Source: a virus. Taken from it: a stretch of 64,000 nucleotides of DNA. The notes under the pieces were generated by a model. The model was not told the origin of the DNA, did no database searches, and saw only the letters and a program-made list of their open reading frames with translations. The translations under genes were made by a program, and so were the position numbers. This document shows, piece by piece, positions 36,963 to 61,612 of this stretch (the first letter of the stretch is position 1; the number at the start of each line of letters is the position of its first letter). The DNA is taken from the IMG/VR virus record IMGVR_UViG_3300044707_000140, positions 34,081-98,080 of that record; one strand, written 5' to 3'.

Positions 36963-37361
36963 ATGAAACTAAGATATGGAGGAGATCTCCAGATAGGAGA
37001 TTTCATTATAGTCGCAAACAGTAATTACACATCCTTTGGATGGTTCTGCGGAAGAGGTCAGGGTGGTACAGTTCAGTATTATTACTTCCGTGTTCCAGCA
37101 GAAAGATATAAGACTTTTCAGGAATGGGAGGCTGGTAAGCTTCCAAATCTTAATAAATGGTACAGAGAAAAGTTTGAGAAACACGGATTTAGCTCCAAGC
37201 TATTCTATAAAGAATACATCTATGGAGGTAGTATGGATTTAAATGGATCTCGTGTTGTTAAGATAGCAGATCCAGAGAGCATATTTACACACCCAGAAGA
37301 CTTAGAAGACTACAGAAAATCAAAAGAAGCACTAATCTACATTAAATTCCCCGTAAAATGA
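36963..37361 (+). CDS. Hypothetical protein
   Basis: ORF track. Confidence 0.65.
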   Translation: MKLRYGGDLQIGDFIIVANSNYTSFGWFCGRGQGGTVQYYYFRVPAERYKTFQEWEAGKLPNLNKWYREKFEKHGFSSKLFYKEYIYGGSMDLNGSRVVKIADPESIFTHPEDLEDYRKSKEALIYIKFPVK

Positions 37362-39676
37362 TCCTAGAAAAACAGAAAGAAGCATTAGTTCACCAAGATG
37401 GTGAAGCAACAGAGTCTATAGGCATGTCCTTAGACTTAGAGTCTGCACAGGTGTTGATGCAGATGTTAAGTAAAAACTTGTATTCAGATGACATTGGTTC
37501 CACTGTTCGCGAGTGTGCCTCGAATGCACTAGATTCACACAGAAGAGCAGGGGTGGACAAACCAATTGTTGTTAGTCTACGAGCTACAAAAGACAACACA
37601 TATGAATTCTCTGTAGAAGATTTTGGTATAGGCTTAGATGCTGAGGACGTAAAGAATATCATCAGCAAGTATGGTAAGTCTACCAAGCGTAACAGCGCTA
37701 CAGAACTAGGCATGATGGGGCTAGGTTTCAAAGCCCCGCTAGCATACACATCTAGCTTTTATTTCATCTGTCGTAAGGATGGAATGGAACGCAAATACAT
37801 GATGTATGAGGGTGAAGATGTCAACACTATTGACCTTCTATATGAAGCACCCACAGATCAGCCTAATGGTGTAAAAGTTATTGTTCCTGTTAAATGGCGT
37901 GACACTTATGACTTTAAGAAAAAAATCAAACAACAGTTGGCGTATTTCGAGAGTGTTTATTTCGATGTGGAAGACATTAGAAATGACTTTTCAATCACTC
38001 GCCACAAGTATTTCCAGTTTTCTGAACTCGCTAGTGATAGCTATATGCATATCTGTCTGGATAATGTTTATTATCCTATCGATTTTGGTAAACTTGGCAT
38101 TAACAGTATATCTCTTCCTGTGGGTCTTCGATTTAGTTTGACAGATGGTATATTTCCAACTCCAAACAGGGAATCTATTCGATATACTCAGGAGGCTAAA
38201 ACTATCATTCTCAAGCGCTTACAAGAAGCTGCTGATTATTTCATTGAGAAATACAATGAAACCATCACAGATACAGATGATGTAAGGCAGATAGTGGAGT
38301 ATTTCAACTCAACCAGTAGATCGCTGAAGTTTAACAATGGATCATGGGATATACATCCTCTAGCTCAGTTTGCCACTATACAAATGGCTAAGCCTAATTT
38401 TAAGGGTACAACACTTATAGATCCAGAGCGTATCTACAAGATTCAGGAATATATCCTTAATGAGTATGAAGCTAAGTTTGTAGTGGATGGTAGAACTATG
38501 CGTGATGCTAAGCGCTATTATCAAATCACCTCTGTAAAACGTCTATATGAGAAGGTGTATGTTTATGAAGGAGAACGTGTCTCTGGACTAAAGAAAGACT
38601 ACATCAAGAGTTTACAGGCAGGTATCCATAAAGATGCTTGCGTCCTTAGGAAGGTTAAGAGTTTTCGTTTATTCCCTGCAAAAGGTAGAAGTCAGGAGTA
38701 TGATAACTACTATAACATCTTGAGACTAAGTAGTTATCCAAAGAAGCAGTGGCGTCAGCTCATCCAAGAGTTTCAGCTTATTATCAAGAGTTTGACAGAT
38801 ACATTCATTAATGTTGATACAATGGATGTACCTCAGTCTTTCATTGATTCTAGGAAGAAACAAAGAGTGACAGCTGGTAAAGCTAGTGGTACACCTGGTG
38901 TCCGTCGTGTTAAACTAAAAGGTGAGATAGTATGTAAGCAGGCTGAAGAACTAGAGCGCTGGGTACAGGGTAAGAGTTGCAAGTGGGTAAGCAAAACCTA
39001 TGACATGGCTAAGTTCCACCAGAACAAGTTCATCCTTGTATATGGTAAGCAGGAAGATACTGATGCTATGGATAAGTGGTTCAAGCCCACCAGAGGTCAC
39101 AATATTGAGCTTGCTATTCTTAGTGAGCGCGAGCTTAAAGTGGTGAGTGCAATTCAATTACATAACCTAATACCTTTTAGTAAATTTATGGAAGGAAAGA
39201 ATAAACCGTTCCAACGGATAGCTACGGCTTCTATGATTCATCAACTAACAAAGCGCTATGATGCTTCATTTGGAAAATGCGAAAGTTTTGCAACAATATC
39301 CTCTAATCTAGCTGCTAAGTTTGAAACACTTAACAAGTATAGAGAAAATCACTTCAAGTATATGGATAATGAAGTGAGAGATGCTATTGTTGAACAGGCT
39401 CAACAAATTAAAGAGTTTGATCCTGAGGTGATATCTATTGTAAATGAGGTGAAAGCTACCCTTGAGAAGTTTCCATTTATAGAAACTATCATGGAGAGCA
39501 TGAATAGGTATGAATCTGACAGGAATAAGGAGCTTCAGCAGGTGCTTATTGATCTATTCAAATACCACAAGCATAGAGTAGATTGGAAGAATTACAACAT
39601 CAAGCTAAATGAAGACCTCCCTTTAGAGGAGACGCTAACATCGGAAACTGTTGAAGAATTAGTACAACAAGATTAA
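37358..39676 (+). CDS. rIIA: rIIA-like protein (GHKL ATPase N-terminal domain)
   Basis: 'LYSD...VRECASNALDSH', 'EDFGIG', 'STKR', 'GMMGLGFK' and 'PNRESI.YT'. Confidence 0.82.
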   Translation: MILEKQKEALVHQDGEATESIGMSLDLESAQVLMQMLSKNLYSDDIGSTVRECASNALDSHRRAGVDKPIVVSLRATKDNTYEFSVEDFGIGLDAEDVKNIISKYGKSTKRNSATELGMMGLGFKAPLAYTSSFYFICRKDGMERKYMMYEGEDVNTIDLLYEAPTDQPNGVKVIVPVKWRDTYDFKKKIKQQLAYFESVYFDVEDIRNDFSITRHKYFQFSELASDSYMHICLDNVYYPIDFGKLGINSISLPVGLRFSLTDGIFPTPNRESIRYTQEAKTIILKRLQEAADYFIEKYNETITDTDDVRQIVEYFNSTSRSLKFNNGSWDIHPLAQFATIQMAKPNFKGTTLIDPERIYKIQEYILNEYEAKFVVDGRTMRDAKRYYQITSVKRLYEKVYVYEGERVSGLKKDYIKSLQAGIHKDACVLRKVKSFRLFPAKGRSQEYDNYYNILRLSSYPKKQWRQLIQEFQLIIKSLTDTFINVDTMDVPQSFIDSRKKQRVTAGKASGTPGVRRVKLKGEIVCKQAEELERWVQGKSCKWVSKTYDMAKFHQNKFILVYGKQEDTDAMDKWFKPTRGHNIELAILSERELKVVSAIQLHNLIPFSKFMEGKNKPFQRIATASMIHQLTKRYDASFGKCESFATISSNLAAKFETLNKYRENHFKYMDNEVRDAIVEQAQQIKEFDPEVISIVNEVKATLEKFPFIETIMESMNRYESDRNKELQQVLIDLFKYHKHRVDWKNYNIKLNEDLPLEETLTSETVEELVQQD

Positions 39677-39731: not shown

Positions 39732-41270
39732 ATGTTAAGCCTAAATTGGTTCAAATCAAGAAAACAAAGAGAACTAGAAGAATTACAAGTGGAGGAGCAA
39801 AGAATAAAGAATGAGCTCCTGAGAAAAGAATTATATCAAGCGTCATTTGCAACATCTGCAACATCAGCTCCTGTAGAAAAGACCTACAACTGGACTGTTA
39901 ACACCACATCCACTCCAACAGTAAGTGTAAAACCTTACAAAACTGTGAAGATGGTGAATGATGTACTAACTGTCGTACTAAATGATGGATCTGTACTATC
40001 TAAACCTGGTGCTACATCAGATGATTTCATTGCTGCTCGTAATGCTACAGATGAGGTGGATATCCTAAATGTTGTAGCTACACAAGAGATTGTTACAGAA
40101 AGGAGAAGACAAGAGTTTGAAGCTGAGAAAGCCAGAGCTCTACAGGCTGGTATTAAACTCCTGTCCAATCTACATGATTTCAAAGTGGAGGGAACTAGTG
40201 TCTATCTGAAGGGTATCAATCGCACATTACCACAGCTGCTGGTAGAAGAATTCTTGCGTATTGTTAACTATTATAATGTAAGTGGTTACAGATTTCAAGG
40301 AGATATTGAGACAGCTCTTGAAGAAGATGCTGAATATCAATCTCTTAAGCGCTTCTTTATGTGGTGCTGTCTAAATCCACGTGCTGAAGTGGCTGACAAG
40401 CTATACAACTTCCTCAAGAGGAATAGCTTCAAAATCACCAAGCAGGGATTCTTTGTAGCACTTCGTAACGTGGTAACACTCCATGGATCTACAGAGCTGG
40501 TCCAGTTTGTATCTAATGCATACAACAAGGTGAAAGCTGTATGGAAGAAGAGCCCAGATGCATATGAGGTGTATCTAAAGGATGGTCAGTATAGCTTTAT
40601 TCATATCGATGACACTTACACTACAGAACTAATGGAAGGTGAAGAGTGGTATGATGAGGAGATTGAGGAATATGTTACATCTGAAGATGAGGAAGTGAGT
40701 GTAAAGAGATCTGATCTGGGTGAATTGATTGGTAATCTGACAGACCTTTATCTAGACCTACCAAACCGTGCAGAGAATCGTTTTACAGATGCTCACACAC
40801 AAACATTTGATATTCGTATTGGTAGACCAGTGAACATGGACCCAGGTGCATGTCGTTGGAATACAGACGATTGTGGTGCAGAAGGTTTGCATTTCACAGC
40901 TAATGAGATTCACTATGTAGGATGTGGTGATCAGTCTGTACTGGTGTTAATTAATCCTATGAAGGTTGTGGGTATTGGTGAGAGTAAGGGTAGATGCTGG
41001 GAATATCTCCCTATCATGACTGTTCCTCGTGAGGAGGCTACAGAAATCCTACATGATCTAGACTTTGACACATTGCAACTGGATGATAGTTACGCCATCC
41101 GTGAGTTGGAGAGCTTGACAGACAAAGCTAAAGAAGGTTTTGTTGCTGAGTCTAGAAAGCATGAGTTTAACATTCCTCACATTTCCACTGTAGAGATTGA
41201 AAACATTGTTGCCTCTTTGGACAACATGAAGGATGAAATCAGCTCTAGAGTTCAGATGATTGTTGATTAA
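39732..41270 (+). CDS. rIIB: rIIB-like protein
   Basis: Follows rIIA; 'ITKQGFFVALR', 'FTDAHT', 'CGAEGLH', 'INPMKVV' and 'KGRCWEY'. Confidence 0.78.
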   Translation: MLSLNWFKSRKQRELEELQVEEQRIKNELLRKELYQASFATSATSAPVEKTYNWTVNTTSTPTVSVKPYKTVKMVNDVLTVVLNDGSVLSKPGATSDDFIAARNATDEVDILNVVATQEIVTERRRQEFEAEKARALQAGIKLLSNLHDFKVEGTSVYLKGINRTLPQLLVEEFLRIVNYYNVSGYRFQGDIETALEEDAEYQSLKRFFMWCCLNPRAEVADKLYNFLKRNSFKITKQGFFVALRNVVTLHGSTELVQFVSNAYNKVKAVWKKSPDAYEVYLKDGQYSFIHIDDTYTTELMEGEEWYDEEIEEYVTSEDEEVSVKRSDLGELIGNLTDLYLDLPNRAENRFTDAHTQTFDIRIGRPVNMDPGACRWNTDDCGAEGLHFTANEIHYVGCGDQSVLVLINPMKVVGIGESKGRCWEYLPIMTVPREEATEILHDLDFDTLQLDDSYAIRELESLTDKAKEGFVAESRKHEFNIPHISTVEIENIVASLDNMKDEISSRVQMIVD

Positions 41271-58049: not shown

Positions 58050-58271
58050 CTAACTAAACTTGTTTAAATATTTGGACAGCAAGATATAGCAGGCAAAGAA
58101 CGATCCTGAGATTCCATAGAAGATAAGATCGGCTGCCCAGAATGAGCCAGTTACCTCCATTATCAACTTGAAAAGGAAGTCGTACCCAAAAGGTAGGAAG
58201 AACATTCCCAGCATTAGGGAGACGTCTCTTAAGGTTGTTAATTTCTTTCTTTGCTTTCTTAACATGCTCAC
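58050..58271 (-). CDS. Small two-TM membrane protein
   Basis: 'LMLGMFFLPFGYD...LIFYGISGSFFACYILL'; start uncertain. Confidence 0.5.
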   Translation of the reverse strand: MSMLRKQRKKLTTLRDVSLMLGMFFLPFGYDFLFKLIMEVTGSFWAADLIFYGISGSFFACYILLSKYLNKFS

Positions 58272-58292: not shown

Positions 58293-58418
58293 TTAACGAC
58301 CCTGTCCCCTATACTTAGAGACAGCTTTATCTTTGGGACCGCTAGATTTTCTAGCCTTTCCACCCTTGCGTTTGCCAAAGGTGATTTTTCTAGAGTCTGA
58401 AGCTTTTGGTTTTGCCAT
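58293..58418 (-). CDS. 41-aa basic peptide ending YRGQGR (not in ORF track)
   Basis: MAKPKASDSRKITFGKRKGGKARKSSGPKDKAVSKYRGQGR*; A-rich leader. Confidence 0.6.
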   Translation of the reverse strand: MAKPKASDSRKITFGKRKGGKARKSSGPKDKAVSKYRGQGR

Positions 58419-58431
58419 TTTGGTTTATTTT

Positions 58432-59175
58432 TTATTTTTTATCCTCTTGGGTTGCATACTTAATACCCATAATTGTTCCTACTATTGAGAAGGCATTGGT
58501 TAGCAATACGCTAAACATATTAGACCAAGTTGACCCAATAATCTGCGTATCCTTGTTTGACAATATTGCGAATGAGTACATTATGGTTGTAATAAATCCG
58601 ACACTAATAATAACCGCTAAAGCACACTTGACAATCGTTTTAATTAATTCGTTTTGACTTTTCTTTAGAGTTGCATCCAAGTCATCCAAAGCAGCATTCT
58701 TTTCTATCTCTATTGCATCTTTTAGCTTGTTAGAATTGTCTAACTCTATTTGCAAGCTCTTAGATAGTTCGTTTATTTTGTTTTTGCTAACAACAGTTTC
58801 ACTGATGTCAGTAGCTATCTTCATTATCTTAGTGATGTTGCCACTTTCGTCGAATATAGGGTTGTAGGTTGCTTGTAGATAGATAGAAGAACCATCTATC
58901 TTCTTTCTCTCAAACTCACCTTCAAAAAACTTTCCCAACCTTAGCGTTTCCCAAAACTTCACATAGTCATCTGACTTGCTATACTCGTAACTAACAAAAA
59001 TGCTATGGTGCTTCCCGATTAACTTATCGTGCTCATCTTCTGCGAATCCCATTGCCTTTAAAAAGATTGCATTAACCCCAAGAATAAACCCATTGAGATC
59101 AAAGTAGATGATGGCATTACTACGATTAATAGCCTCCATCCTACTCAGTAGCTCTTCTTTACTGAGGTTCTTCAT
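58432..59175 (-). CDS. PAS/PAC-domain protein with coiled coil and two C-terminal TM helices
   Basis: 'AINRSNAIIYFDLNG.IL..N..FL..MG...LIGKHHSIFV...FWETL..G....GEFER....G...LQATYNPI.D..G...KIMKIATDI' is the chemoreceptor/BdlA-type PAS pattern. Confidence 0.85.
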   Translation of the reverse strand: MKNLSKEELLSRMEAINRSNAIIYFDLNGFILGVNAIFLKAMGFAEDEHDKLIGKHHSIFVSYEYSKSDDYVKFWETLRLGKFFEGEFERKKIDGSSIYLQATYNPIFDESGNITKIMKIATDISETVVSKNKINELSKSLQIELDNSNKLKDAIEIEKNAALDDLDATLKKSQNELIKTIVKCALAVIISVGFITTIMYSFAILSNKDTQIIGSTWSNMFSVLLTNAFSIVGTIMGIKYATQEDKK

Positions 59176-59416
59176 CGTTATTTCCTTTTGTCTTGTTAAT
59201 CCATTTATCTACAGAAGCTATTCCAAAAGCTCCCAGTACAATTATCATGAATCCATCAAATATGAATTGGTGGATGGGCATTTCTCTACCCAGAATACCA
59301 GTGATAAGATCTGTAATCAGAGCTACCACCATCATGAGGAAGGCAATAAATCCAACCACAGCTTTCTCATTAATAGAGTTGTTGTCGTTAAATAAATCGT
59401 GTAAAAACTTTTTCAT
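59159..59416 (-). CDS. Holin-like two-TM protein
   Basis: Two hydrophobic helices and a charged C-terminus; next to the endolysin. Confidence 0.6.
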   Translation of the reverse strand: MKKFLHDLFNDNNSINEKAVVGFIAFLMMVVALITDLITGILGREMPIHQFIFDGFMIIVLGAFGIASVDKWINKTKGNNDEEPQ

Positions 59417-60015
59417 GCTAATAAATTGTAATATTCTTTAAAATGTTTGATACGATCAGCCAGACCAATTGTACCACCATTTACACGCTTAGTCACCTCA
59501 GTGACTACAGTGTCTGTAGCACCCTTGTCAGCTATTTTGTGTAATCCATTTTTATGGAAAAACCATGCTGCAGAAAGGAGGGGATATTTGCTAGCCACCA
59601 ACTCTGGATTAGCTAGGATGTCCTCAGGAACTACAGCATCAAATGCTTTGTAGTTATCCTTTCCTGTAAGCTGGATGTAACCTCTTCCACGGAACTTAAA
59701 TCCTTCACCAGAGGCCTCAGGACCGTTACCCATTCTTCCTCCATATACTAGATTAGCAATCTTTTCAGGCTTACGCTCATATTCCTTAGCTTTAGCTTCT
59801 GTAGGGAAATACTTCTTAAAGATGGATAGGAGCCCTTTAGCTCCATAATTCAGGTTTTCATTCACCACCTTAAACCCACCAGATTCATGTCCTGCTTGGG
59901 CTAAGAAATGGGCTAGTTTAACGGGGGTGTTTAGTTCAAATTTGGAGATGGTATCAGGTAGCTGAGCTATTACAGCATCAGGAATGTGACCTTTAAGTTT
60001 TTCTATATTTAACAT
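59413..60015 (-). CDS. Endolysin, glycoside hydrolase family 19
   Basis: 'AHFLAQAGHESG', 'ENLNY', 'FRGRGYIQLTGKDNY' and 'TKRVNGGTIGLADR'. Confidence 0.9.
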   Translation of the reverse strand: MLNIEKLKGHIPDAVIAQLPDTISKFELNTPVKLAHFLAQAGHESGGFKVVNENLNYGAKGLLSIFKKYFPTEAKAKEYERKPEKIANLVYGGRMGNGPEASGEGFKFRGRGYIQLTGKDNYKAFDAVVPEDILANPELVASKYPLLSAAWFFHKNGLHKIADKGATDTVVTEVTKRVNGGTIGLADRIKHFKEYYNLLA

Positions 60016-60018
60016 ATG

Positions 60019-60678
60019 TTATACTGTTTTATACTTCCAAAAATAACCAGCTGACCTAGTTCCATTTTTTAAAGCATTGCTAAGACGTGTTATATATTTT
60101 AACCTTAAGACTTGAGCAGCTATTGTCATGCTATCAAATTCATTTATTACATTACCAGCACTATCTAGTTGGACTATAGGCTTTCTACGATTAATATTTG
60201 GTCTTCTAGCTTTTTCTGATAGTTTTCTTTTGTGATTTTCAGTGAAAGTTCTACCCTTATGCCTTTCACTTATTTTCAACTTTGTTTCTTCAGATAAATG
60301 TGTCCCAATTCTTGTAAGTCTTTGACTTTCAATTGATTGTACACTTCTTTTTCTACCTACAAGTTTTTGACTTATGCTTTTAATAACTTCTGGACTATGG
60401 TTTATTGTTCCATCGCCTCCATCAGTCATGTTAACTAGAGGTCCTAGTTTTAAATCTTTTCTACCATAATCAGAAATCATTCCAATTTCTACTGCTTTAG
60501 CATCTTCTATACTACAACCTTCTATGAGTATATCTACAGCATATCCCACTTTATCAACTATATACTTCCAGTGTTTATTTCTTTTCTTTTTGGAGTAAGC
60601 TCTAGAAGCATCTTTACCTATACCAATGTAGAATACTTCACCTGTATCTAATCTTCTATGTTGATAAACTGTTGCCAC
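60019..60678 (-). CDS. GIY-YIG-like homing endonuclease with NUMOD3/NUMOD1 motifs
   Basis: 'VYQH...FYIGIG...R', 'LVNMTDGGDG', 'HLSEETKLKIS' and 'SAGYFWKY'; AT-rich. Confidence 0.75.
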   Translation of the reverse strand: MATVYQHRRLDTGEVFYIGIGKDASRAYSKKKRNKHWKYIVDKVGYAVDILIEGCSIEDAKAVEIGMISDYGRKDLKLGPLVNMTDGGDGTINHSPEVIKSISQKLVGRKRSVQSIESQRLTRIGTHLSEETKLKISERHKGRTFTENHKRKLSEKARRPNINRRKPIVQLDSAGNVINEFDSMTIAAQVLRLKYITRLSNALKNGTRSAGYFWKYKTV

Positions 60679-61290
60679 TTATTTTTTAAGCTTTATCTTC
60701 CAAAATGCACCTATTCCGTATTGTAAATCGCCATAAGTATTTACACTTAGTGACCCTGACAAAGCAAAATCTTTCCTAGTTTTTAGAAGAGCAGATGCCC
60801 CTATTTGCTGATTATTACCACCAGTTTGGAAGACCCCCCCTATGTACACCTGGTTCACTTTTTTAGCTGGGAGAGTGATGGTCTCAGTAATTACGGGGTA
60901 TTTAATGTTCACCTGTGTACCTCTACCTACAATCAGGTTTTTCTGTACAGTGTCTGTTATCTTTACATATCCATTGCTATCAATACGTATGCTGTCCTCC
61001 ATAATGTTCTTTGCAAGTAATTGATTTACAATCTCTTGGTATTGTAACACTAGCTTTGCATAGTTGGTGTCTGGTATATACTGGTTGATGATGGTGTCAT
61101 GTGACTCTATCTCAATGGTCTTTACCAGCTGAGGTTTGCTGTATATCAGGGAATCTTTTACCACCCAAGCTGTATCCCTAACAATTGTAGGCTGCTCAGA
61201 AGGATTAGGCTGAGCACACTTTTGTAGAGCCACTATCACTAGCAGCACTATTATGGCTAAGCTCAATAAATTCTTCTTAACAAACTCCAT
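60679..61290 (-). CDS. Spanin-like membrane/lipoprotein
   Basis: N-terminal hydrophobic segment ending LQKC; beta-rich C-terminus; in the lysis cassette. Confidence 0.5.
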   Translation of the reverse strand: MEFVKKNLLSLAIIVLLVIVALQKCAQPNPSEQPTIVRDTAWVVKDSLIYSKPQLVKTIEIESHDTIINQYIPDTNYAKLVLQYQEIVNQLLAKNIMEDSIRIDSNGYVKITDTVQKNLIVGRGTQVNIKYPVITETITLPAKKVNQVYIGGVFQTGGNNQQIGASALLKTRKDFALSGSLSVNTYGDLQYGIGAFWKIKLKK

Positions 61291-61291
61291 A

Positions 61292-61612
61292 TCAATTAGT
61301 TAGGTTGGCAATAATTTTGGTGACATATTCAGCTCCCATAACAAGTGCACCTAGAATAAAAGCTGCCCAGTACACTTTCTTCTTGAAATCCTCATGCTTT
61401 TCCACCTGCTTTTCTAGCTTGTTTATCTTAGCTTCTAGATATTCAATGTCTTTAACAAACCCACCCTGTTTAGTGAGGGGGTTGCCCAAAATAGCGTCTA
61501 CCACTTGTGTTAGTTTGGTATCTATGGAGTCCATTTTCTCCTCTAGATCATATAGACGCTGGTCCATGCTTTTTAATTCTTCTTTTACTTGTTCTTCAAA
61601 TAGGTTTTCCAT
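61292..61612 (-). CDS. Coiled-coil protein with C-terminal TM helix (XhlA/holin-associated-like)
   Basis: Heptad-rich with C-terminal 'VYWAAFILGALVMGA'; first gene of the lysis operon. Confidence 0.55.
   Translation of the reverse strand: MENLFEEQVKEELKSMDQRLYDLEEKMDSIDTKLTQVVDAILGNPLTKQGGFVKDIEYLEAKINKLEKQVEKHEDFKKKVYWAAFILGALVMGAEYVTKIIANLTN

Follow-up and report, generated by a model that had tools for sequence, protein, structure and literature searches.

A PAS domain joined to a conserved two-helix membrane hairpin in the lysis cassettes of uncultured phages

Lysis timing fixes the burst size and the fitness of a phage. To our knowledge, the only signal-responsive control of lysis that is well understood is the lysis inhibition of T-even phages, together with its analogue in phage ICP1, and these systems sense superinfection from outside the cell. 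T4 lysis inhibition involves the holin T and the antiholins RI and RIII (PMC11413866), and the ICP1 analogue involves TeaA/ArrA (PMC7182436). Here we describe a gene from an uncultured freshwater phage that encodes a PAS sensor domain joined by a long helix to two transmembrane (TM) helices (the PAS-hairpin protein, 247 aa), and a wider family in which the same hairpin is found either fused to its sensor or, PAS-less, in an operon with a histidine kinase and a receiver (the relay form). The gene lies in a 64-kb stretch of DNA, hereafter the window, at the end of an IMG/VR virus record that spans 98 kb and is estimated to be 85% complete.

The PAS-hairpin protein is predicted to resemble T4 lysis inhibition in that a soluble domain on, or bound to, a hole-former would read the signal that determines lysis time. 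Its gene, too, accompanies the lysis genes of a virulent phage in which rIIA and rIIB are present. The protein has no sequence or fold relation to those of T4, where a periplasmic domain does the sensing and superinfection is read by way of a separate protein. In the family described here the putative input is instead a cytoplasmic PAS domain, a GAF domain or a kinase/receiver relay, and the membrane part is attached by a helix that is predicted to be rigid.

The LytSR two-component system controls the holin-like CidAB/LrgAB proteins of staphylococci and Bacillus. As a two-component system linked to holin- and antiholin-like membrane proteins, it is the nearest analogue of the relay form. LytR is, however, a bacterial, DNA-binding, transcriptional regulator, whereas the phage regulator consists of a receiver only and must therefore act on a protein, and the window carries a fused PAS domain in place of the relay.

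Class II holins and pinholins, exemplified by S21 68, have two TM segments in an N-in/C-in arrangement, a charged tail and a stripe of small residues on TM2, and they are encoded beside an endolysin. As modelled, the PAS-hairpin protein shares the two-TM N-in/C-in plan, the charged tail and the TM2 stripe, and it also has an endolysin neighbour. It differs from these holins in having no homology to them, in carrying a 170-aa cytoplasmic extension and in being far more conserved than is usual for holin families; moreover, the neighbouring endolysin is soluble and not of the signal-anchor-release type. Features of the holin type (two TM helices, a short charged C-terminal tail and, by prediction, an N-in topology) are thus present in a protein of atypical size for a holin: the window protein has 247 aa with a cytoplasmic part of about 170 aa, and forms with two PAS domains reach about 370 aa, whereas holins are typically shorter than about 150 aa.

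The PAS-hairpin protein resembles T4 lysis inhibition and LytSR in logic, and sensors built on a PAS-helix-effector plan as well as the receptor Aer in build, and it belongs to none of these groups. A full-text literature search found no account of a PAS-holin or of a PAS/GAF-fused lysis-cassette protein, and it found no phage two-component system tied to lysis.

A PAS-hairpin gene within a lysis cassette

The closest counterparts of the phage terminase are found in a Leptolyngbya phage, in the Cellulophaga phages phi17:2 and phi4:1, in Flavobacterium phages and in crAss-like phages, and the host is probably a member of the Bacteroidota. A megablast search of the cassette against isolated phages gave zero matches.

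The cassette consists of eight tightly packed genes that run on the minus strand from 61612 to 58050, with overlaps or gaps of no more than about 20 nt. It opens with g106 (61292–61612), which encodes an XhlA-like protein with a coiled coil and a C-terminal TM segment (PHROG 937, E 2e-8) and whose homologues are found immediately upstream of the PAS-hairpin gene in six loci. Then come g203 (60679–61290), whose 203-aa product has a TM or signal segment at its N-terminus and is seen repeatedly in PAS-hairpin cassettes, and a GIY-YIG/NUMOD homing endonuclease gene. The next gene (59413–60015) encodes a 200-aa GH19-type endolysin that lacks an N-terminal TM segment and is recognised by both Pfam Glyco_hydro_19 (29 bits; cutoff 25.5) and PHROG 181 'endolysin' (E 2e-65). 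It is followed by hol85 (59159–59416), an open reading frame for an 85-aa two-TM protein with a charged C-terminus that falls in no Pfam or PHROG family and is the best candidate for the conventional holin. The PAS-hairpin gene (58435–59175, with its stop codon at 58432–58434) is supported by its open reading frame, by Pfam PAS families and by a structural model. The last two genes are g41 (58293–58418), for a very basic 41-aa peptide whose homologues accompany the cassette in 22 loci, usually adjoining hol85, and g73 (58050–58271), for a 73-aa two-TM protein with homologues that are 82% identical and hold the equivalent position in two other loci (L071 and L072).

The stop codon of the endolysin gene and the start codon of hol85 overlap by 4 nt (ATGA), and the 3' end of hol85 overlaps the start of the PAS-hairpin gene by exactly 17 nt (59159–59175), which confirms the order of endolysin, holin-like gene and PAS gene, and the length of the overlap, given in the original prediction for this locus. 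Promoter and terminator scans, as well as a scan for the Bacteroidetes -7 motif, returned chance-level matches only. The rIIA (37358–39676) and rIIB (39732–41270) genes are genuine. They had been read as a further pointer to lysis control, but they lie about 18 kb from the cassette on the opposite strand, are unlinked to it and add nothing to the case.

We compared the neighbourhoods of PAS-hairpin genes on metagenomic contigs, which are partly interrelated, taking the best 80 loci per scan, calling genes by the longest-ORF rule and defining neighbour families as BLAST clusters with one annotated representative each. An endolysin lies within four genes of the PAS-hairpin gene in 73 of the 81 best-scoring IMG/VR loci, and in the window it is one gene away. 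Such a survey of PAS-two-TM genes near endolysins had been proposed together with the original prediction, with a lack of linkage set beforehand as part of the grounds for refutation; among the 56 fully flanked loci (at least three genes on each side), an endolysin was found within four genes in 55, within two genes in 51 and adjacent in 40. With one endolysin per roughly 100–200 genes, proximity of this kind would be expected by chance in a few percent of loci. The neighbouring endolysins come from three unrelated families, namely Peptidase_M15_3 (PHROG 894), GH19 (PHROG 181) and Phage_lysozyme (PHROG 7), and gene order is shuffled from locus to locus, which argues that the linkage is functional rather than historical. 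By this linkage pattern, the PAS-hairpin gene is a true component of the lysis cassette.

Small TM genes also recur in these neighbourhoods, including hol85 homologues, Phage_holin_4_1 and XhlA-like genes. Of the 81 best-scoring PAS loci, 48 have a hol85 homologue no more than four genes from the hairpin gene. When fully flanked loci are considered, 44 of 56 have a hol85 or Phage_holin_4_1 homologue within four genes and the remainder have other small TM genes. Nearly every locus offers a second small TM protein as a candidate for the real holin, so hole formation need not fall to the hairpin.

The relay form has a recognised endolysin within four genes in 31 of 74 fully flanked loci, a count that rises to 40 of 74 if holin-like genes are included. 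This link to lysis is well above chance and weaker than that of the fused forms, and many of the neighbours are unannotated. A different reading, in which the protein would be a membrane-anchored sensor with a role outside lysis (in host takeover, for instance, in superinfection exclusion or in controlling a membrane protein of the host) and would sit in the late operon for co-expression only, is favoured, among other points, by the lack of a recognised lysis gene within four genes at about half of the relay-type loci. The relay neighbours k4, k6 and k7, which have no assigned function, agree with such a role, and the strong conservation of TM2 described below would suit binding to a conserved host membrane target. 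The sensor-fused forms nevertheless lie within four genes of an endolysin, from one of three unrelated families, at 55 of 56 loci, and adjacent to it at 40, in shuffled order, and PADLOC gave no match to defence families. We consequently regard a role outside lysis as improbable.

Domain architecture and the PAS pocket

Residue positions given here follow the full-length numbering of the 247-aa protein, and all coordinates are on the minus strand. A PAS sensor domain spans residues 22–126 (58798–59112) and scores above the cutoffs of PAS_9 (E 4e-10, 40.3 bits; cutoff 27), PAS (36.0 bits; cutoff 22.6), PAS_3 (35.5 bits; cutoff 25.6) and TIGR00229 (E 5e-13, 49.3 bits; cutoff 22.9). This domain is cytoplasmic: the protein has no signal peptide, and an N-cap helix at residues 6–19 stands ahead of the PAS domain. 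Beyond it, a modelled stalk helix (residues 127–176; 58648–58797) runs on into TM1 (residues 177–205; 58561–58647), which is placed by a hydropathy scan, the model and conservation. TM2 (residues 212–241; 58453–58542) is placed by invariant alignment columns and a polar-face test, and the sequence ends in a short, charged C-terminal tail, TQEDKK (58435–58452).

An AlphaFold2 model built from a 106-sequence alignment (mean pLDDT 79.7) places the PAS core at residues 21–123 and predicts an unbroken helix over residues 125–205, made up of the stalk and TM1, that is separated by a 5-residue loop from TM2 at residues 211–243. The modelled PAS domain is a five-stranded antiparallel sheet (strands 21–25, 30–34, 84–91, 97–108 and 114–123) with flanking helices. 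Foldseek gave LOV-histidine-kinase chimeras, short LOV proteins, MmoS and NifL as the top matches, with probability 1.0 to LOV, MmoS and NifL PAS structures. By sequence, the closest solved relatives are MmoS PAS-A (3EWK, E 7e-8), phototropin LOV1 and, weakly, Aer (E 0.006).

The architecture shares with YF1, LOV-histidine kinase chimeras (4GCZ, 8A52), MmoS (3EWK) and NifL (2GJ3) an N-cap helix and PAS core, a C-terminal helix that leads into the effector and a heptad-constrained linker. It differs from them in that the effector is a pair of TM helices and not a kinase, and in that the LOV cysteine and the flavin-contacting residues are absent. In Aer (8DIK), too, a cytoplasmic PAS domain at the N-terminus precedes two TM helices that are connected by a very short outer loop, a resemblance that likely explains why JGI automatic annotation names relatives of the window protein 'methyl-accepting chemotaxis protein'. 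We reject this name, since no HAMP or MCP domain follows TM2 and the protein terminates 6 residues past it. Aer also differs in that its hairpin is an anchor, whereas here the hairpin is the most conserved part. A Pfam search at E ≤ 0.1 found no kinase, MCP, HAMP, GGDEF or other output domain, in agreement with the earlier description of a PAS domain that lacks a kinase, MCP or GGDEF output and is followed by membrane helices only.

The Asn/Asn/Gln residues of LOV domains hydrogen-bond the isoalloxazine ring of the flavin. In HMMER alignments to phototropin LOV1 and MmoS, the corresponding positions of the window protein are R90/L100/A121, each of which is conserved at 95% or more within the phage subfamily. 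A LOV photoreceptor can be dismissed, as the photoactive Cys is missing and the position of the GXNCRFLQ motif reads GKHHSIFV. The suggestion in the original prediction that the PAS domain senses flavin or redox state is not supported at the residue level.

The PAS domain of the window is 28–59% identical to the PAS domains of the phage histidine kinases encoded in relay operons, and the pocket-type residues H57, Y71, W75, R90 and Y104 are conserved at 95% or more across both hairpin and kinase PAS domains. Conservation of this kind bears on the idea that the PAS domain is a ligand-free dimerisation scaffold and the protein a constitutive second holin component, as in mycobacteriophage two-holin cassettes. 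Dimerisation is a frequent job of PAS domains, and the idea would accord with the flavin-binding residues of LOV, MmoS and NifL not being conserved. In addition to the shared pocket residues, however, two observations speak against it: the head is exchanged elsewhere in the family for a GAF domain or a kinase/receiver-driven domain, all of which are signalling parts, and the heptad-exact stalks described below imply that register matters. A mere scaffold therefore seems very unlikely.

Conservation of the hairpin and its fused and relay forms

Comparison of relatives indicates that the hairpin is the most constrained part of the protein. Across a 32-codon stretch of TM2 there are 134 distinct DNA versions and only 8 peptides, with a third-position identity of 49% versus an amino-acid identity of 95%, and the TM2 columns are invariant in two separate alignments of relatives. 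This strong purifying selection rules out a decaying remnant. Polar or small residues make up 14 of the 30 positions of TM2 and gather on one face (S215, N219, S222, T226, S230, G233 and G237), with a polar-face resultant of 0.42 against a random 95th percentile of 0.35. A polar/small stripe occurs in helices that pack tightly or line a pore. The neighbouring hol85 is variable, with a mean column identity of 34%.

The stalk between head and hairpin varies in length in a restricted manner. The DIT motif of the PAS domain stands exactly 90 aa from the hairpin loop in 67 of the 68 unique proteins of the PAS form. Among 84 unique relay effectors, only six spacings occur between the head motif and the loop (85, 92, 99, 113, 120 and 127 aa), and these are multiples of 7 apart. 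With at least five independent changes of stalk length, the probability of chance agreement is about (1/7)^5. Spacing by heptads implies that head and hairpin are kept in a fixed rotation through a coiled-coil-type helix, and a fixed heptad register is a hallmark of PAS-to-effector signalling helices such as those of PAS-linked kinases.

The closest database proteins are 69–85% identical to the window protein and about 371 aa long, with two tandem PAS domains. IMG/VR contains at least 186 PAS-form relatives, with one or two PAS domains and mostly from lake metagenomes, and a search with residues 150–247 identified more than 450 PAS-less relatives of the relay form. An exhaustive HMM search with the hairpin alone recovered 108 clusters among 1.84 billion representatives; in these the hairpin is essentially always C-terminal and is preceded by one PAS domain, two PAS domains, a GAF domain or a small domain. 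All three loci of the GAF-headed form (P0251) adjoin hol85 or GH19. The ESM Atlas clusters of the family are 91–100% viral. In tblastn searches of isolated phages, the PAS protein returned PAS-only matches and the relay effector likewise no family member. The species-representative genome collection gave one match, in a Flavobacteriales MAG; the contig concerned is 4.9 kb long, has hol85 and GH19 as well and is most likely a binned phage fragment.

Residues 130–247 match no Pfam, PHROG or NCBIfam family, described holins included, and homology between the hairpin and hol85 was rejected because hhalign against the hol85 family gives a probability of 12% only. Short 'homologues' of 81–134 aa, considered as free-standing holins, proved to be mostly internal-start or contig-end calls, and the ORFs on long contigs measure 181–229 aa. 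By these comparisons the hairpin appears as a compact, virus-only family that lies outside every described holin family. The sensor-gated holin or antiholin of the original prediction is upheld in its lysis-cassette membership and its sensor-helix-membrane architecture, and not in its kinship: the two-TM part belongs to no holin family and is not homologous to hol85.

PAS-less homologues of the TM part, which had been expected to carry holin annotations, do exist, but they are not annotated as holins and instead form the third gene of a kinase/receiver/hairpin operon. Among the best-scoring loci, the small-head hairpin occupies this third position of a fixed operon in about 84 of 97 non-redundant loci. 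The first gene encodes a membrane histidine kinase of 294–711 aa with GAF, one or two PAS and HATPase_c domains (Pfam). The second encodes a receiver-only regulator of 143–148 aa whose match to Response_reg exceeds the cutoff and which keeps the acid pocket, the phospho-acceptor Asp, the Ser and the Lys unchanged across 79 sequences. The third encodes the hairpin protein itself, a relay effector of 181–229 aa that is modelled as a small head (about 37 residues) with a single, very long helix and the hairpin shared with the PAS form. The neighbours of relay loci include k4, k6 and k7, to which no function is assigned.

The fused and relay forms are mutually exclusive alternatives. The 98-kb record that contains the window lacks both the receiver and the kinase core, and a receiver is likewise missing from five further PAS-hairpin records, which include three complete genomes with terminal repeats. 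As a positive control, the same receiver query succeeded in five of five relay records of 187–430 kb. The hol85, M15 and g41 families flank both forms (relay examples are L181, L182, L213 and L226). The window gene thus shares with the kinase/receiver/hairpin operon an identical hairpin, a PAS domain homologous to that of the kinase and the same neighbours, and it differs in the lack of a kinase and a receiver in its phage, in the direct fusion of sensor to hairpin and in its location within the cassette rather than beside it. These sequence relationships recast the window protein as a probable fused, one-component version of a phage signalling relay.

The near-invariance of the hairpin also bears on whether the protein is an antiholin. 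As such, the hairpin would hold hol85 or its substitutes inactive in the membrane, and a signal at the PAS domain would release or strengthen the block, in a cytoplasmic-signal analogue of T4 lysis inhibition. Translational coupling to hol85 through the 17-nt overlap is consistent with this role, as is the hol85 or Phage_holin_4_1 homologue within four genes in 44 of 56 fully flanked loci, and large soluble domains are usual for regulators and not for hole-formers, with a precedent in T4 (PMC11413866). The hairpin is, however, nearly invariant, whereas the presumed partners come from different and fast-evolving families and are missing at some loci (for example L067–L070, where a two-PAS hairpin gene is directly followed by GH19). 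The hairpin has no homology to hol85, and there is no strict co-occurrence with one holin family. An antiholin thus strikes us as somewhat unlikely. That the hairpin is invariant while hol85, Phage_holin_4_1 and the endolysins vary points to self-assembly or a conserved host target over a cognate holin partner, and we favour autonomous action of the hairpin over a cognate antiholin role.

A possible sensor-to-membrane control of lysis time

Our main reading, to which we assign a probability of roughly 45%, is that the window protein is a one-polypeptide, phage-only sensor-to-hairpin module that controls lysis time and in which the activated hairpin forms a small depolarising lesion. From domain logic only, we infer that the PAS domain is the input and the hairpin the output; membrane permeabilisation as the output of the hairpin, and the sign of the effect on lysis, are likewise proposed.

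The module would work as follows. The cytoplasmic PAS domain would be joined by a rigid, heptad-register helix straight to TM1 of the two-helix hairpin, whose TM2 would present its invariant polar/small face. A change in the PAS domain would travel down the helix, as in PAS-linked kinases, and alter the packing or oligomerisation of the hairpin in the inner membrane. The activated hairpin may then open a small membrane lesion and dissipate the proton-motive force, the loss of which would fire the conventional holin, hol85, and so free the soluble GH19 endolysin. In larger phages, where a small head replaces the PAS domain, phosphorylation through the kinase and receiver would do the job that ligand binding does for the PAS domain.

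Extended to the family, this reading is a tentative one to which we give slightly less than even odds: PAS, GAF and kinase/receiver inputs may all act through a heptad helix on one invariant hairpin that times permeabilisation in many aquatic phages of Bacteroidota-type hosts, and would then constitute a new lysis-timing class. The family is widespread in lake and marine viromes, and IMG/VR has at least 186 loci of the PAS form and over 450 of the relay form. If the reading is true, phages use bacterial sensor parts (PAS, GAF and phosphorelay) to read the interior of the infected cell and to act directly on the membrane, and the family would offer, in a compact module, a natural example of a cytoplasmic sensor that drives transmembrane helices. 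The fused form found in the window would be the simplest version, with input and output in one gene, of a new kind of control over lysis time that responds to the internal chemistry of the infected cell.

Opening genes and the endolysin slot

The lysis block opens with two minus-strand genes, one encoding g106, an XhlA-like coiled-coil/TM protein (61292-61612), and the other g203, which is 203 aa long and has a TM segment at its N-terminus (60679-61290). Both are found again alongside the cassette in related loci, and their candidate roles include holin partner and spanin substitute. A GIY-YIG/NUMOD homing endonuclease gene (60019-60678, minus strand; PHROG 314, E 4e-21) separates g203 from the endolysin, and none of the 81 related loci has an equivalent of it. 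In the closest syntenic relatives, L071 and L072, the slot that is occupied by a GH19 enzyme in the window contains an M15 endolysin. Because the endonuclease is absent from the 81 loci and the endolysin family differs from that of these relatives, the homing endonuclease may mark a recent endolysin swap.

Directly past the endolysin, many PAS-hairpin loci encode a metallophosphoesterase of the calcineurin-like type (PHROG 221/7339), either 293 or about 323 aa long, without an obvious connection to lysis. This gene falls at positions +1 to +3 relative to the hairpin gene in L004, L011, L022, L029-L037, L042-L044 and other loci.

Composition of the sensor region

Comparison with 368-aa relatives that have two tandem PAS domains (P0001) revealed the single PAS domain of the window protein (58435-59175, minus strand) to be a mosaic of PAS-A and PAS-B. 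The N-terminal 35 residues and 'IYLQATYNPI' are PAS-A-like, and 'IFLKAMGF', 'SYEYSKSD' and the C-terminal 'MKIATDISETVVSKNKINELSK' are PAS-B-like. This pattern is compatible with unequal recombination between the repeats or, alternatively, with a recent duplication.

A few hairpin proteins have unusual N-terminal parts (P0270, 224 aa; P0242, 159 aa), one being a truncated family-2 glycosyltransferase and another a Rossmann-like start. Such proteins may be chimeras produced by assembly or gene calling, not genuine fusions.

A basic peptide accompanying the cassette

The cassette is regularly accompanied by g41 (58293-58418, minus strand), a very basic, TM-less peptide of 41 aa with homologues in 22 loci, where the usual order is g41, the two-TM holin-like gene hol85, PAS-hairpin gene and endolysin. 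A cationic peptide that disrupts the outer membrane has reportedly been found in coliphage phiKT. Since no spanin pair is evident, g41 might be a peptide of this type.

Proteins downstream of marine relay effectors

In the marine loci with the relay form (L082-L098), in which a histidine kinase and a receiver-only regulator share an operon with the hairpin effector, a conserved trio of proteins, with lengths of 176, 131 and about 407 aa, follows the effector at genes +1 to +4. None of the three has a Pfam or PHROG match. If the trio represents unrecognised lysis proteins, the linkage of the relay form to lysis is understated.
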